From: Bacilli bacterium | Lineage (GTDB): Bacteria > Bacillota_I > Bacilli_A > ML615J-28 > CAG-313 | NCBI GenBank assembly: GCA_045612145.1 | Contig: JAZKYN010000070.1 | Span: 1 to 45,563 of the forward strand | Direction: 5' to 3' | Length of the DNA stretch: 45,563 bases | Shown here: in pieces, positions 2,698 to 31,871 of the stretch | Layout of the letters: every line of letters starts with the position of its first letter | Position numbering within the stretch: position 1 is the first letter of the stretch | Notes under the pieces: generated by a model | Told to the model about the DNA's origin: nothing | Database searches by the model: none | Seen by the model: the letters and a program-made list of their open reading frames with translations, nothing else | Made by a program: the position numbers and the translations under genes

Positions 2698-2720
2698 ATT
2701 AAATTTTTTATTATAAACTA

Positions 2721-2749
2721 TTGACAAACAAAGTTGATTGTGATATAAT
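2721..2749 (+). promoter_or_regulatory. promoter P4 (TTGACA-17-TATAAT, TGA extended -10)
   Basis: Perfect consensus hexamers at 2721-2726 and 2744-2749. Confidence 0.7.
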
Positions 2750-2755
2750 ATAGGC

Positions 2756-3081
2756 GTGGAAACCGAATGGCGGCTCGGAAGACACCTAATTGAATATTAA
2801 TGTCGCCAAACAATATTTCAATTAGTAACGAAATAAATAGTTTAAACATTTTTTTAATATTGCTAGGAACAGACGGTGTTCTCGAAAGGCTAGCTGGTAG
2901 AGCTTACCCAATACTGATTAGATAGGTTCGAATCCTAATAGCGGTTTTTAAAAGTTAGAATGATTTTATTTCAAGCTTATACTTTGGAAATTTGAACTAA
3001 GACTCGCAAACTTATTTTTTATTCTCCGAGGTTGAGGCGGGCGGACGAAGAATGAGGGATTGTTTTTCGTCTGCTTTTTTT
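2756..3081 (+). ncRNA. candidate ~325-nt structured non-coding RNA / leader
   Basis: ORF-free interval between P4 and the terminator at 3041-3081. There is a 13-bp bulged hairpin at 2786-2825 whose loop CGCCA can pair with TGGCG at 2768-2772. There are nested hairpins at 2862-2894 and a T-arm-like TAGGTTCGAATCCTA at 2923-2937. AAACCG (2760) pairs with CGGTTT (2942) to close the domain. Confidence 0.5.
3041..3081 (+). terminator. intrinsic terminator
   Basis: GCGGACGAA / TTCGTCTGC 9-bp stem (one G-U pair), 16-nt loop, T7 run. Confidence 0.7.
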
Positions 3082-3089
3082 ATTGTTAT

Positions 3090-3146
3090 GGGTTGTTAGC
3101 ATAAAGTAATGCGTCCGTGATATTGGTGCAAGTCCAATACAACCCT
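3090..3146 (+). ncRNA. tRNA-like element lacking an anticodon arm (57 nt)
   Basis: Perfect 7-bp acceptor stem GGGTTGT/ACAACCC. D-like arm GCAT-AAAGTA-ATGC. Only a 9-nt connector. 5-bp T-arm ATTGG-TGCAAGT-CCAAT. No encoded CCA. Confidence 0.45.
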
Positions 3147-3205
3147 AGTTCCAATATTTTATGTTTATAAAATTTTTACTTTACTTTCTTAAACGTTTAG
3201 ACTTT

Positions 3206-3236
3206 GCTACCGAGTCTTAAATAAAAGGTAGCTTTT
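3206..3236 (+). terminator. terminator-like hairpin just upstream of the RHH-terL RBS
   Basis: GCTACC ... GGTAGC stem followed by TTTT. Weaker than the others. Confidence 0.35.
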
Positions 3237-3260
3237 AATTAACAATAAGGAGAAATCAAA

Positions 3261-3431
3261 ATGGATAAAAACAGCAAAATTCAACGTTCTATTATCCTTA
3301 CAGTGCAAATGAAGGAAGATTTAGAACAAATTGCAAAAACAAAATATATGTCAGTAAATGACGTGATTAGAATTGCTATTTCTGAATATATAAAAGAGAA
3401 CAAGAAAAACGAAACAGCTGGAGAAAAGTAG
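3261..3431 (+). CDS. ribbon-helix-helix (CopG/Arc-like) DNA-binding protein, 56 aa
   Basis: Not in the ORF track. AAGGAG RBS is present. The pattern RSIILTVQM then KEDLEQIAK then VNDVIRIAISEYI matches a strand-helix-helix layout. The stop lies 4 nt before the terL ATG. Confidence 0.55.
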   Translation: MDKNSKIQRSIILTVQMKEDLEQIAKTKYMSVNDVIRIAISEYIKENKKNETAGEK

Positions 3432-3434
3432 AAA

Positions 3435-5354
3435 ATGAAGATAGACAAGTCACATACAAATTATAGTGATGAGTTTTACACATACGTTCACAGCATAAAC
3501 GACATAAAACTTACTATTGAGAAGCTTTACGACGGAGAAACCAAAAGAGGCATAAGCAAAATTTATTTTGATGCAGAAAAGCATTATAAATTGTTAGCTT
3601 TACTTAGAGATGGTTTACAATCGGTTAGAAAAATAAATGACTTCGAGGCTAGTAGGTTAGCAATCTATATAGCTATACCTTTAGCTGAAAGATACCTTAC
3701 AAGGATACAAAAGCTTTCAGAGACTGGTGATAGTAAGAAATACGCAAAATATTTTGATTCTTTAAATATATACTGGGATATGGTTGCTGTTGGAGCGAGA
3801 TATTCATTAAATTATTTTATAGAATATATGTTTCACAACAAGAGTAAGAAACCGTATCAGTTTAGAAAACAAATCTTAGCTTCTGCGGTTTTTTATGTAG
3901 GTAGAGGATTTCTAGAAAGATTAAAAATCGGAATAGACTTTAGAGACAATATGGTCGCACCGAACTTAGTTCTATTTTCGACGTTTCCATCGAGTGGTAA
4001 AACACTTATAGCAAACTACGCTATGGCGTGGATTAAATGCTTAGCTATGATAAAAATTCGTGGCGGAGGAATGCTGAGAATCGGCAACGAAGAAGGAAAC
4101 GTTAATAAAAACTCTCAAGCTATAAAAGATATAATATTAGATGAAACAATAATAGATGTTTTTCCAGAAATGGACGAACTTAGAGATGATAAAGGAAAAT
4201 ATAAACCTTTTGATAAAGATAGTATAGATGAGTGGTTTCTTAAAGAAGATAAAGAAGAACCTAAATCTGCTGTTTTTAGAACGGCTGGTTCTGCTACCAA
4301 CGGTATAAGAATTAACTTAGGACTTATCATAGATGACCCTAGTAGAGGTATGGTAGATAGAAAGAATGTAGATACTCATCAAAGAATTATAGCGAGTTAT
4401 AACGGTGACTGGCGAAGCAGATTTGACAATGAAGATGATTCATTCGTTTTTGCTTTAGGTACAAGATTCAATAACTTTGATGTGTTTAGTGCGATTCAAG
4501 ATACAGCTGAGAAAAAAGGTTTGTACAAAGATGAAAACTTTGAAAACACTTATAAAACAAAAGATGGAAAAACAGTTATTATAAATATAGATTGCGAAAA
4601 AGATGACGGAAGTGGAGCGTCAAGATACCCTGAGCTTATTTCTGACTCGACATTAGAGGACAAAAGGAACTCTATGAGCAAACAAGAATATTATTGTGTA
4701 TATAGACAAAAACCGATTCCTGAGGAAGGTCTTGACTTTGACTATTCTTTATTAAATACTTACGATGAAAAGTACGAAGATGACCAATTAGATACTTTCG
4801 CTTACGCTTCTTGCGACCCTACAAGAAAGACTGGTCAAGACTACTTATCATTACCTATTTTTAAAGCTGTAATAGATAAGAAAGATAAAAACTTCGGAAA
4901 ATATGCACTTATAGATGTAATATTTATACAAAAAAGTGTAAAAGACGAACAAACTTTCCAAAGAATTATAGAAAAGATAGTGAATAACGGTATAAAGAAA
5001 CTGTACTTAGAAATAAACACTGATACTTCTTTAGGTCAAAGAATACAAGACCATCTACAATCAATTGGATATAACATTCTTGTTATAAAAGAAATATATA
5101 GCACGCAAAAGAAAAGCGAAAGAATAGCTGACCAAACAAGTTCTATTCATAGAAATATGGTATTCCCTAGAGAAGGCATGTATCCTAAATATACTGAAAT
5201 AGGGCATTTTATGGAACAATTGACTATGTATTCAAGCTCTAGTGCGAATAAGCACGATGATGCCGCTGATAGTGTTGCGACATTCAGTAGAGAACACATA
5301 GACACAACGAAAATAAAAAATACAATTAAATTTAATTCTAAATCTTTAAGATAA
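3435..5354 (+). CDS. terL: terminase large subunit
   Basis: Walker A-like FPSSGKT, Walker B-like GLIIDDP, and C-terminal nuclease acidic motifs ASCDPT and HDDAADS. It lies directly before the portal gene. Confidence 0.9.
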   Translation: MKIDKSHTNYSDEFYTYVHSINDIKLTIEKLYDGETKRGISKIYFDAEKHYKLLALLRDGLQSVRKINDFEASRLAIYIAIPLAERYLTRIQKLSETGDSKKYAKYFDSLNIYWDMVAVGARYSLNYFIEYMFHNKSKKPYQFRKQILASAVFYVGRGFLERLKIGIDFRDNMVAPNLVLFSTFPSSGKTLIANYAMAWIKCLAMIKIRGGGMLRIGNEEGNVNKNSQAIKDIILDETIIDVFPEMDELRDDKGKYKPFDKDSIDEWFLKEDKEEPKSAVFRTAGSATNGIRINLGLIIDDPSRGMVDRKNVDTHQRIIASYNGDWRSRFDNEDDSFVFALGTRFNNFDVFSAIQDTAEKKGLYKDENFENTYKTKDGKTVIINIDCEKDDGSGASRYPELISDSTLEDKRNSMSKQEYYCVYRQKPIPEEGLDFDYSLLNTYDEKYEDDQLDTFAYASCDPTRKTGQDYLSLPIFKAVIDKKDKNFGKYALIDVIFIQKSVKDEQTFQRIIEKIVNNGIKKLYLEINTDTSLGQRIQDHLQSIGYNILVIKEIYSTQKKSERIADQTSSIHRNMVFPREGMYPKYTEIGHFMEQLTMYSSSSANKHDDAADSVATFSREHIDTTKIKNTIKFNSKSLR

Positions 5355-5542: not shown

Positions 5543-7024
5543 ATGATTGATACAAACATTTTAAAACATATTGGAAGAATTAAAATAAAAAGTAGTATCG
5601 TTCCTACTGGTAACGTTGAGCAAGATAAAAAACTACTAATGAAAATGTTAGAAGAAACTTTAACTAAGCACACCGAAAACCAAAACGATATGAAGATTTT
5701 AAAAGAATATCACGACAACGTTCAACAACTTGATAAGCATAAGGAAATGAGAAGTGATATTGACAATCAAGTAAAAGTCCCTGACGTTTATAGAATAACA
5801 AGGGATTTAAACGGTCACATTTGTGGTAGCGGAGTTATTTTTTCTGATTCGACAGGTAAATACCCTAAACAAATGCTTAAACTAAATACTTATTTTAAAA
5901 AATCTTTCTTTTCTTCTGTTTATATAAAAGCTAATAAAAACGCAAGTTTATACGGAGTTGGTTACTATTATATAGAACCTAACAAAAACGAAGAAATTTT
6001 ATCTCCTTTCTCAATCGAAAGTGAAAATTTAGACCCTCTATATACGTATTGTGTTTATAGTAATGACGTTATTCCTAAAAAAACTTGGGCTGTATTAGTA
6101 AATGAATATACAGACGAAAAAAAGGTTCTTAAAAAGCGTTATTTAGTATGGTCAAAATATAATCAGTTCGTAATAGAAGAAGATGGAATCAAGCAATTAA
6201 AAGTAATTGAAGATTATCCTTTAGTTTTTAAACAAATTCCAGTTATTGAAATTCAAAGAAACGAAGATAGAATTGGTGACTGCGAATTAGCTTTAGGAAT
6301 TATCGACGCTAAAAACTTATTGTTCAGTAATCGAATTGATGATGTTCAACAAGTAGTTGACTATGTATATATTTTATATAATCTAAGAATTACTGATGAA
6401 GATGCTACTTTAAAAGACAAAAAAGAAGCTTTAACAAATATTCTTAATTCAAGAGTTATAGAGCTAGAAACAATTAACCCTCAAATTCAACCGAAAGTTG
6501 ACATTTTAAAGAACCCGCTTAATCAAACAGAAATACAAACACTAGCAAACTATTTAGATAGTATATTAAATGTTATTGTTGCATTGCCTGATAGAAATTC
6601 AAGCGGTGGAGGACAAAATGATACTGGTGTCGCTAACGATTACAAGTTAGGATTCAGAACTTTAGACACTTACAGTGACATAGTTACACCTTATATCATT
6701 AAATCTTTAGAAGAATTACTTTCTATTATATTCAAAATCATTAAAAACGATTCTGAATATTCTAAAGAAATTGGAAAATTAAAATTATCTGACGTGGAAG
6801 TAAAACCACAAAGAAACAAAATCTTTAGCATTACTGATGCGGCTAATTCTTACAGCACATTAAGAAGTGCAGGATTAAATGATGAAGATGCGTTAAAGAT
6901 TACAAATATTTCTCAAGATGTTGCTGAAACAGCAAACAAAAACAAAGCATCAAGAGAACAAGAACAAGTAGTTGCTACAAAAACAGATAAAATTGTTGAA
7001 GATGTAAGCAACACACAAAAATAG
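5543..7024 (+). CDS. portal protein
   Basis: 493 aa, immediately downstream of terL and upstream of the scaffold and capsid genes. Size and position are typical of SPP1 gp6-type portals. Confidence 0.8.
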   Translation: MIDTNILKHIGRIKIKSSIVPTGNVEQDKKLLMKMLEETLTKHTENQNDMKILKEYHDNVQQLDKHKEMRSDIDNQVKVPDVYRITRDLNGHICGSGVIFSDSTGKYPKQMLKLNTYFKKSFFSSVYIKANKNASLYGVGYYYIEPNKNEEILSPFSIESENLDPLYTYCVYSNDVIPKKTWAVLVNEYTDEKKVLKKRYLVWSKYNQFVIEEDGIKQLKVIEDYPLVFKQIPVIEIQRNEDRIGDCELALGIIDAKNLLFSNRIDDVQQVVDYVYILYNLRITDEDATLKDKKEALTNILNSRVIELETINPQIQPKVDILKNPLNQTEIQTLANYLDSILNVIVALPDRNSSGGGQNDTGVANDYKLGFRTLDTYSDIVTPYIIKSLEELLSIIFKIIKNDSEYSKEIGKLKLSDVEVKPQRNKIFSITDAANSYSTLRSAGLNDEDALKITNISQDVAETANKNKASREQEQVVATKTDKIVEDVSNTQK

Positions 7025-7091
7025 GTACATACATTAAAAATAATGTACAGATACAAAAGGCAAAATTCATTTTATGAAAGGAGAAATTACA

Positions 7092-30642: not shown

Positions 30643-31191
30643 CTAAAAAATAATTCTTCTTGAATTGAAATTAGCTAATTCGTTTTCTTGTTTTTCTAAT
30701 TCTTTTTGAAGTTTAATTTCGTATTTCTTCTTTTCTTTTGCAATAATTTCATCAACTTCTTCTTGTGAATAAATTGCTTGTTTATGTTTGCTCATTTTTC
30801 TTCTTGCGAAATCCCACTCATCAATATAAACAGAACAAACGCTTGATTTTTTTGCGGCAAAATAATAGTTATACAATTCAAATCCATAAGCAAAAATAGT
30901 CACATAAGGTCTTTTAGACATTATTTTACGTTCTTCGAAAGGTTTAGATTTATTTTCAGCAACCTTCATTGATTGTTCTGCCATTCTTTCTTTAAGTTTA
31001 TCGAATTGTTCTTGAGTACCTCTTAAAAACGTATTAAAATAAACTTCTTTTTGAGTGTAATATTTTTGTTTCTTTTGGCTGAATCTTCTAGTTGTGATTT
31101 CAGTAACACATTTTAAACAATTTGTTCCATCGGATTCAACAAAATCACTAATTTTGTAAATAGTAAATTTAACTTTATTTAAAACTTTCAC
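30643..31191 (-). CDS. hypothetical protein (GTG start)
   Basis: AAGGAG lies 9 nt upstream of the GTG. Part of the packed minus-strand array. Confidence 0.5.
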   Translation of the reverse strand: MKVLNKVKFTIYKISDFVESDGTNCLKCVTEITTRRFSQKKQKYYTQKEVYFNTFLRGTQEQFDKLKERMAEQSMKVAENKSKPFEERKIMSKRPYVTIFAYGFELYNYYFAAKKSSVCSVYIDEWDFARRKMSKHKQAIYSQEEVDEIIAKEKKKYEIKLQKELEKQENELANFNSRRIIF

Positions 31192-31871
31192 AATTTATAT
31201 TCTCCTTCTTTTACAATTTCTATTGGTTGAGTAATATATTTAGACAATCTATCAATTACTTCTTTGCCGTTAAAAGCTTTAGTAGATGACCAGTGAATTA
31301 CTAATAATTTTTCTGGCTTGTAATTTAAACTACTTAAATAATTTTCCATACTTTCTAAACTATGGTGGTTTTTAAAAGACTTTGTTAGATGAATAAACTC
31401 GTTGTTATCATCGTACATTGTTAATTCCACGATTTTTTCTTTTATGTGGTTAACTTCACATATCATATAATTAATTTTACAAGAAACTTTAGTGATTTTA
31501 TTAGTATCAGTAGCAAATAATATAGTTTTATTATCGCATCGAATCAAATACGAAACACATTCAACGTTATGGTATGCTTTAATAGGAATTACGACAAAAT
31601 CATTGTCTCCAAACACGATTGGTTTGTTAAGAGTTGCAGTTAAAGATGTTATAATTGGAATGTTTAAGTTTGAAAACATTTTGTCGTTATCTTTGTAATT
31701 GTGGTCGCTATGATTGTGCGAGATTAAGATTGCTTTTGTTTTGTCTATATTTATTTTTGTTATGATTTTTATATATTTGATTCCTAATTCTAAAACCAGC
31801 TGATTTCCTTTGTTATTTTCTAATATGTAAAAGTTGCCACCTGAGCCTGTTGCATAACATTTAAAAACCAT
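31188..31871 (-). CDS. metallo-beta-lactamase fold hydrolase
   Basis: HNHSDH (HxHxDH) motif. Confidence 0.75.
   Translation of the reverse strand: MVFKCYATGSGGNFYILENNKGNQLVLELGIKYIKIITKINIDKTKAILISHNHSDHNYKDNDKMFSNLNIPIITSLTATLNKPIVFGDNDFVVIPIKAYHNVECVSYLIRCDNKTILFATDTNKITKVSCKINYMICEVNHIKEKIVELTMYDDNNEFIHLTKSFKNHHSLESMENYLSSLNYKPEKLLVIHWSSTKAFNGKEVIDRLSKYITQPIEIVKEGEYKL

Follow-up and report, generated by a model that had tools for sequence, protein, structure and literature searches.

Folds of the transfer RNA (tRNA) type that lie within a longer transcript are known from mascRNA/MEN-beta of MALAT1/NEAT1, in which RNase P makes the 5' cut and RNase Z the 3' cut. The product of the mascRNA type is about 60 nucleotides (nt) long, receives CCA and does not decode. 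In tRNA punctuation, the tRNAs of mitochondria, the tRNA genes in the late-operon leader of Stx phages and the spacer tRNAs of ribosomal RNA (rRNA) operons act as RNase P/RNase Z cut sites. The element considered here occupies 57 nt of contig JAZKYN010000070.1 (assembly GCA_045612145.1, Bacilli bacterium), the whole 45,563 nt of which are called the window below. It is confirmed as a real element, tRNA-shaped and lacking the anticodon arm, and is rated as a tRNA-like processing element cut down to the recognition core. Judging from sequence comparison, it is probably a minimal RNase P/RNase Z module that releases an RNA of about 57 nt and parts a leader from the mRNA of a ribbon-helix-helix (RHH) protein and the terminase.

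The closest functional analogues would be the mascRNA-type elements and tRNA punctuation. However, mascRNA and MEN-beta are eukaryotic nuclear RNAs, and mascRNA keeps a short anticodon-like stem, unlike the window element. The mascRNA cut makes the 3' end of the upstream RNA, whereas the main effect of the window element would be the separation of leader and mRNA. The units of tRNA punctuation are normally full decoding tRNAs, whereas the window element is reduced to the part recognized by the enzymes; the likeness lies in the real tRNAs that take the same slot in two related phages and in the armless form found in a Zoogloea rRNA spacer. The tRNA-like domain of transfer-messenger RNA (tmRNA) resembles the element in having an acceptor stem, a T arm and a D-loop element and no anticodon. 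Unlike the element, tmRNA has G3:U70, a long mRNA-like domain and pseudoknots.

The tRNAs of Lak megaphages carry "enigmatic introns", and the intron of tRNA-Thr(TGT) "itself may encode a tRNA" (Devoto et al. 2019, PMC6784885). A T4-type RNA ligase gene has been reported in Lak genomes (preprint 10.1101/356790). Like those relatives of the window element that are nested in tRNAs, the Lak introns interrupt phage tRNA genes in the anticodon region, and by our own reading of Table S6 (PMC6784885) the tRNA-Tyr intron ends in an acceptor/T-arm module. The introns shown are about 75-93 nt long and not of the 54-64-nt armless form, and the Lak paper (PMC6784885) proposes no family, structure rule or excision mechanism. 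The window copy differs from them in lying outside any tRNA, in a 45-kb phage without tRNA genes. Apart from the Lak intron note, full-text literature searching found no description of anticodon-less tRNA-like phage RNAs.

The minimum free energy and centroid RNA folds of the element both equal the three-helix structure that a preliminary description of this DNA had proposed (-15 kcal/mol), and the fold is retained within a 236-nt context. Sequence and fold agree on a 7-bp acceptor stem, a 4-bp D arm and a 5-bp T arm with a 7-nt loop. The acceptor stem is followed by a discriminator, the D arm is accompanied by U8, A14 and A21, and the T-loop residues are U54, G55, C56, A57 and A58, among them the tRNA core residues U54, C56 and A58. 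The D loop has one G instead of G18G19, and position 55 is G, not U. The base at -1 is U; no CCA is encoded 3' of U3146, where the bases are AGT. The anticodon arm, a 5-bp stem with a 7-nt loop, is absent, and 9 unpaired nt join the D and T stems. The earlier characterization as a tRNA-shaped RNA unable to decode is therefore upheld, acceptor, D and T arms being present and the anticodon arm missing. Its statement that 9 nt sit in place of a 17-nt anticodon arm is right as to the length, but the same nucleotides also cover position 26 and the variable loop. In a normal tRNA the three parts together take up 22-23 nt, and in the element about 3 nt are left for the anticodon arm itself once position 26 and a 5-nt variable loop are allowed for. 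The T-run of the upstream terminator ends at 3081 and the element begins 9 nt later, as had been described.

The single sequence by itself is weak evidence and does not go beyond chance. Its fold z-score is -1.95, 9 of 200 shuffles fold equally well, and a simple descriptor of acceptor plus T arm finds about one match per shuffled window. The element is more than chance because the comparison of orthologues and of the family shows compensatory changes and covariation. Standard tRNA detection does not call it: ARAGORN finds no tRNA or tmRNA gene anywhere in the window, and Rfam 15 at gathering score gives no match at the element, RF00005 (29 bits) included. At E<=10, nothing relevant appears around the element either, including RF00005, RF00023 and the Y RNA/YrlA models. 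A bacterial Y RNA (YrlA) module was also rejected on structure, the ends of the element forming an acceptor stem and not a Ro-binding helix. The orthologue in contig L003 reaches 41.1 bits with RF00005, the anticodon arm being deleted, and family members in L060 and L071 reach 46 and 39 bits.

Contigs with the same gene order were reached through homologues of the large terminase (TerL), by way of the protein database and contig look-ups. A blastn search of 2700-3500 against INPHARED gave no match, TerL tblastn against INPHARED gave matches at <=27% identity only, and IMG/VR searched by TerL yielded no relatives; no cultured phage could be tied to the armless-element family. In L001 (98% TerL identity) an identical element occupies the same slot. 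In L002 and L003 (76-77%) the slot and the architecture are the same while the sequence has changed: L002 has GGAGCAA...TTGCTCC with the T stem GTGGG/CCTAC, and L003 has GGAGCGG...TCGTTCC with the T stem GTTGG/CCAAC. Between the window and these two, five of the seven acceptor pairs and the first T-stem pair have both bases replaced; the compensatory changes in related phages that had been proposed as a check are thus found. The D stem is identical in the window, L002, L003 and the L009 group of phages. In L019/L020 (77% TerL identity) the space behind this leader and terminator is taken by tRNA-Met, tRNA-Met and tRNA-Gln, so the element can be said to occupy a "tRNA slot". At 56-61% TerL identity, the slot holds other structured RNAs or nothing obvious. 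A different structured RNA precedes the RHH gene in L004 (4680-4830) and L007 (4690-4830), both at 57-61% TerL identity. Its closing stem covaries (CTCACTACAA/TTGTAGTGAG vs ACCCACTATA/TATAGTGGGT), and two promoter-driven noncoding transcripts lie upstream of it.

A search signature taken from the orthologous copies, TAGCATAA-N-AATGC-N-GTKCAANTC, was scanned in IMG/VR, in GTDB (one genome per species, 185,579 bacterial and archaeal) and in JGI metagenomes. To be kept, a match needed 6 or more of the 7 flanking acceptor pairs and 4 or more of the 5 T-stem pairs. Of the 112 signature matches in the first set, 46 qualified, about 0.2 being expected by chance according to our calculation, and in IMG/VR all 20 signature matches were members. 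About 35 distinct member sequences were obtained, 54-64 nt long, on contigs of 21-233 kb. Among 30 distinct aligned members, 99% of stem cells pair, vs 66% after shuffling and 35-42% with the partners slid. All 7 acceptor pairs have changed on both sides somewhere in the alignment, and so have the T pairs with one exception among the five. Covariation scores 0.855 vs 0.17 in shuffles; the D stem and G53:C61 being fixed by the search pattern and the sequences preselected for pairing, this test measures excess over chance and not D-stem conservation. G-U pairs are frequent in the stems of the family and mismatches are rare, which indicates that the given strand is the one that folds and that the structure is RNA.

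U8, A14, A21, C56 and A58 are retained across the family. The acceptor sequence, the first base pair and the linker vary freely, and the discriminator is U in 16, A in 9, C in 4 and G in 2 members. U stands at -1 in 24 of 31 members. The linker measures 7-13 nt and is poorly conserved, mostly ending in RAT or TAT. The D loop measures 5-9 nt; D loops vary in length among tRNAs as well. G55 is found in 9 of 25 members with a single-G D loop and in 0 of 5 with a GG D loop, a weak trend in small numbers. The covariance model built from the family alignment, R1, separates the armless members (49-72 bits) from full tRNAs (<=45 bits) and finds one copy in the window at 59.3 bits, a score that is partly by construction since the window sequence is in the seed. 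The window element shows the R1 architecture on the transcribed strand: acceptor(7)-UA-D(4 bp)-linker of 7-13 nt-T(5 bp, 7-nt loop)-acceptor-N73. Most members sit among the tRNAs of phage arrays and share their strand with those tRNAs or with neighboring genes. All-vs-all comparison of open reading frames at 34 member loci revealed no partner protein conserved across phage groups except SSB, SPFH and HNH. The family is one of widespread, uncatalogued phage RNAs shaped like tRNA without an anticodon arm.

A further group of tRNA-like genes was observed in 30-34-kb phages (L009, 4300-5010, minus strand; L010-L018, L047 and L093). The genes of this array have oversized "anticodon" loops of 10-13 nt (AAUUCGUACA, CAUCCCUGUACA and UGAACCGUUCGUG) and receive no ARAGORN call, and some pass the Rfam tRNA model. 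The array adjoins a free-standing armless element and has its D arm in common with it.

Nesting within tRNAs was tested by removing each element in silico and running ARAGORN. An outer tRNA that holds the element in its anticodon loop was found for 18 distinct members, and 17 are free-standing, including those of the window, L001-L003, the L009 phage group and L100. No outer tRNA was revealed by this procedure around the copies in the window, L001, L002 and L003. The L071 tRNA with its insert reads AGGGGAT-TA-GCGT..GCGC-A-AGGGA-CUUU[element-A-CCA]GAC-UCCCU-...-AUCCCCU-G-CCA. A fixed rule was applied, with the 5' cut at the inner +1 and the 3' cut after N73 or, where it is encoded, after CCA. 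In 16 of the 18 nested members it gives a canonical 7-nt loop that has U33 and a purine at 37, and the anticodon suits the rest of the tRNA; those restored are Asn GUU, Glu UUC, Pro UGG, Lys UUU and Gln UUG. The junction lies after position 34 or 35.

This rule coincides with the cleavage rules of known enzymes. Given an acceptor/T-arm stack with an elbow, RNase P cleaves at +1, so that the upstream piece ends in a 3'-OH and the tRNA begins with a 5'-phosphate. Where a precursor lacks CCA, RNase Z cleaves behind N73 and leaves a 5'-phosphate downstream, and Thermotoga RNase Z and E. coli RNase BN cut after encoded CCA. RNase P, RNase Z and the CCA-adding enzyme all read the acceptor/T-arm stack and the elbow, the anticodon arm not being needed. 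The match between the nested junctions and these rules supports processing. Eight of 14 nested members (p ~1e-11) encode CCA behind the discriminator vs 1 of 17 free-standing ones, and all 8 CCA-bearing nested members sit in outer tRNAs that also encode CCA; in the Asn group neither the inner nor the outer RNA has it. The stems of the outer tRNAs are kept by compensatory change, for example GTAGG/CCTAC vs GCAGG/CCTGC in the T stem. In the 24-tRNA array of L057, nested genes provide Glu and Lys tRNAs that are otherwise absent.

Several other features were seen beside the nested members. Further interrupted tRNA genes (Lys, Thr, Lys and others) lie at L079 3549-3696, L079 787-976, L057 8440-8577 and L071 4144-4303; their inserts have acceptor/T-arm ends and different middles, such as an 8-bp tetraloop hairpin replacing the anticodon arm, or an insert of about 125 nt. 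HNH endonuclease genes stand directly beside intron-containing tRNA genes in L108 (5539-6039) and L111 (522-1004). The arrangement is reminiscent of collaborative homing, in which free-standing homing endonucleases mobilize introns close to them. The L057 array also holds a tmRNA gene (2543-2906, 70.5 bits) and a Pistol self-cleaving ribozyme (6980-7042, 38.4 bits, above the gathering score).

The processing reading rests on two properties of the family: it keeps just the determinants that end-processing enzymes read, and its ends are the exon junctions. Of the three roles suggested in the preliminary description, a processing signal for RNase P, RNase Z or the CCA-adding enzyme fits best, given the ends of the nested relatives at the junctions and their CCA. 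Transcription from the strong upstream promoter would continue past the leader terminator, the way it does in late operons under antitermination control, and the layout of genes and terminator resembles such operons. Host RNase P is predicted to cut 5' of G3090. RNase Z, to judge from the nested relatives, is predicted to cut after U3146, since no CCA follows, and the CCA-adding enzyme may extend the released RNA. As a result, the leader RNA would be split from the RHH/terminase mRNA, whose 5' end would fall just upstream of a pseudoknot, and a small stable tRNA-like by-product would be released alongside. In larger phages the same two cuts would excise the module from the anticodon loop of a tRNA as an intron.

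A cellular member supports a processing role for the free-standing copies. In a Zoogloea metagenome-assembled genome, an element with a 7-bp acceptor and a 6-bp T stem lies in the rRNA operon about 105 nt upstream of the 23S rRNA, and its position suggests a pre-rRNA processing signal.

Several observations weigh against processing as the function of the window element. No promoter-like site was found between the terminator and the element, so its transcription would depend on terminator read-through. The window copy has G55 and fails the Rfam tRNA model, unlike the L003 orthologue, and for these reasons it could be a weaker substrate. The distant relatives L004, L007 and L008 (TerL 56-61%) do not have the element. 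L109 and L123, both nested in tRNA-Pro UGG, break the simple 3' rule, which leaves loops of 8-10 nt in them; they carry CAA or a single C in place of CCA, which points either to decay of these genes or to a 3' cut that is positioned in another way. Finally, selection on structure would also be expected if the released RNA were the functional product. Taken as a whole, the first reading of the element is partly supported.

For the nested members, an intron pathway may be sketched. An insert after position 34 or 35 would be removed by RNase P on the 5' side and by RNase Z/BN after N73 or CCA on the 3' side, so that the 5' exon would end in a 3'-OH and the 3' exon start with a 5'-phosphate. RNA ligase of the T4 Rnl1 type seals such 3'-OH/5'-phosphate ends in the anticodon loop. 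Bacterial group I introns and archaeal/eukaryal bulge-helix-bulge introns are the known introns of tRNAs. Like them, the nested members interrupt the anticodon loop and must be removed for a working tRNA. A group I ribozyme would be much larger than their 54-64 nt, they show no evident bulge-helix-bulge motif, their ends are tRNA 5' and 3' processing sites, and their junctions lie after position 34/35, vs 37/38 in known tRNA introns. They are possibly a new class of tRNA intron. It is put forward tentatively that they are a third kind, cut by RNase P and RNase Z/BN and sealed by a ligase; the free-standing copies would then be this module in another role, either punctuating transcripts or serving as source copy for a mobile intron. 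No RNA ligase genes were seen in the short contig fragments around the member loci, and the nested tRNA-Asn region has no match in INPHARED.

The released armless tRNA could instead be the functional product, a trans-acting mimic that titrates a host factor at the acceptor end or elbow, with processing serving for biogenesis only. Candidate partners would be toxins modifying the CCA end, tRNA-binding defense sensors, RNase P or modification enzymes. Free-standing copies are indeed kept in many unrelated phages, including the window phage with no tRNA genes of its own, the core residues are conserved, and some members encode CCA. However, the core positions retained are equally those that RNase P and RNase Z need, the free variation of acceptor, first base pair, discriminator and linker leaves no common identity for a specific binder, and no conserved partner protein is found near the elements. 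A decoy for tRNA-targeting nucleases, as first suggested, meets the further difficulty that the known anticodon nucleases need the missing loop. Such a mimic is considered unlikely.

Somewhat more doubtful still is a "solo" copy of a selfish mobile tRNA-shaped intron, which would have landed or stayed behind in what used to be a tRNA slot and would do nothing for the phage. The occurrence of the same family as inserts in tRNA genes, the tRNA genes in the slot of a close relative and the HNH genes beside nested copies in L108 and L111 would suit it. It accords poorly with the compensatory change by which both stems are kept at one locus in relatives at 76% TerL identity. Nor does any remnant of an outer tRNA flank the window copy, and the 5-bp complementarity between its flanks, TATTG/CAATA, is already lost in L001, the relative at 98%. 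A decaying tRNA pseudogene that has lost its anticodon arm would explain the tRNA-derived shape and the passing of the Rfam tRNA model by some members with the arm deleted, but it is very improbable, since some 35 distinct sequences share the armless architecture and their stems covary throughout, whereas a pseudogene would lose its pairing. A tmRNA-like tRNA domain used with SmpB, or a DNA site such as cos/pac or attP, can practically be dismissed: the acceptor/T-arm module without an anticodon does recall the tRNA-like domain of tmRNA, and the element does adjoin the terminase genes, but position 3:70 is G:C where tmRNA has G:U, a tag reading frame is missing and neither ARAGORN nor RF00023 gives a match (which disposes of the tmRNA mimicry suggested earlier), the G-U pairs make the structure strand-specific and hence RNA, and most members lie in tRNA arrays and not beside terminases.

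Table 1. Features of the armless element, of its surroundings in the window, and of the cellular member in Zoogloea (contig L032)
Feature	Position	Strand	Details
Element, whole	3090-3146	+	57 nt; GGGTTGT-TA-GCAT-AAAGTA-ATGC-GTCCGTGAT-ATTGG-TGCAAGT-CCAAT-ACAACCC-T
Acceptor stem, 5' strand GGGTTGT	3090-3096	+	Pairs with 3139-3145 (RNA fold)
U8-A9 and D arm	3097-3112	+	GCAT/ATGC (3099-3102 with 3109-3112), 6-nt loop AAAGTA
Linker, 9 nt	3113-3121	+	G+TCCGTGAT = GTCCGTGAT; replaces position 26, anticodon arm and variable loop
T arm	3122-3138	+	ATTGG (3122-3126)/CCAAT (3134-3138), 7-nt loop TGCAAGT (RNA fold)
Acceptor stem, 3' strand ACAACCC, and discriminator	3139-3146	+	Stem strand 3139-3145; discriminator U3146
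Sigma-70 promoter	2721-2749	+	TTGACA-17-TATAAT with TG (extended -10); 12/12 consensus matches
Leader/noncoding RNA	2756-3081	+	About 330 nt, conserved; terminator-like hairpin 3039-3076, T-run 3075-3081
H-type pseudoknot	3199-3232	+	5' untranslated region of the RHH/terminase operon; lies 3' of the predicted RNase Z cut
RHH gene	3261-3431	+	56 aa; first gene of the structural operon
Large terminase gene	3435-5354	+	Follows the RHH gene; portal and capsid genes next
Cellular member, L032	3427-3488	-	Zoogloea rRNA operon: 16S, tRNA, tRNA-Ala, element, 23S, 5S

The window is a tailed-phage genome of about 45 kb with 30% G+C (Table 1). Its promoter upstream of the leader is conserved in L001-L003 and L019 and is likely to be the source of the transcript that carries the element. 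The leader itself is kept in L001-L003 and L019/L020 and, in part, in L008, and the region 2721-3081 is possibly a late-operon antitermination leader. It contains the motifs TGGCGRC...GTCGCC and TTCGCAAAC, a conserved T-arm-like hairpin (2923-2937) and, on the terminator hairpin, a conserved apical AGGGATT. A tRNA-like domain within the leader was looked for by manual reading and rejected; the T-arm-like hairpin is conserved, yet it has no consistent acceptor stem. In the pseudoknot, which is conserved, the loop GCTACC (3206-3211) of a hairpin (3199-3203/3213-3217) pairs with GGTAGC (3227-3232), and this pairing covaries, L002 having CCCCATC/GATGGGG and L003 GGCTGCTTT/AAAGCAGTC. The pseudoknot weakly resembles Rfam freshwater-2 (E=5).

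RNase Z belongs to the same superfamily as the hydrolases of the metallo-beta-lactamase (MBL) fold. A protein at 31188-31871 (minus strand, 227 aa) was considered as a phage-encoded RNase Z and rejected: it is an MBL-fold hydrolase (PF12706/phrog_392) with no sequence match in PDB and no link to RNA. It sits in a module with RecT, SSB and the replisome organizer.

The family is thus one of RNAs that tRNA finders miss and that have no Rfam family of their own, the Rfam tRNA model picking up only some members. The 54-64-nt module would be a natural minimal RNase P/RNase Z cassette and may be of use for multiplexed RNA processing. For the "enigmatic" tRNA introns of megaphages, the family suggests a concrete mechanism that can be tested. 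If excision by RNase P and RNase Z followed by Rnl-type ligation is true, this would be protein-assisted tRNA splicing in bacteria built from maturation and repair enzymes alone. Ligase of the Rnl type is known for the repair of anticodon-nuclease damage, and a shared ligase would, if so, tie tRNA introns to the conflict between phage and host over tRNAs. Interrupted phage tRNAs are currently missed, as the Glu and Lys tRNAs of the 24-tRNA array illustrate, and the tRNA repertoires of phages are therefore under-counted.

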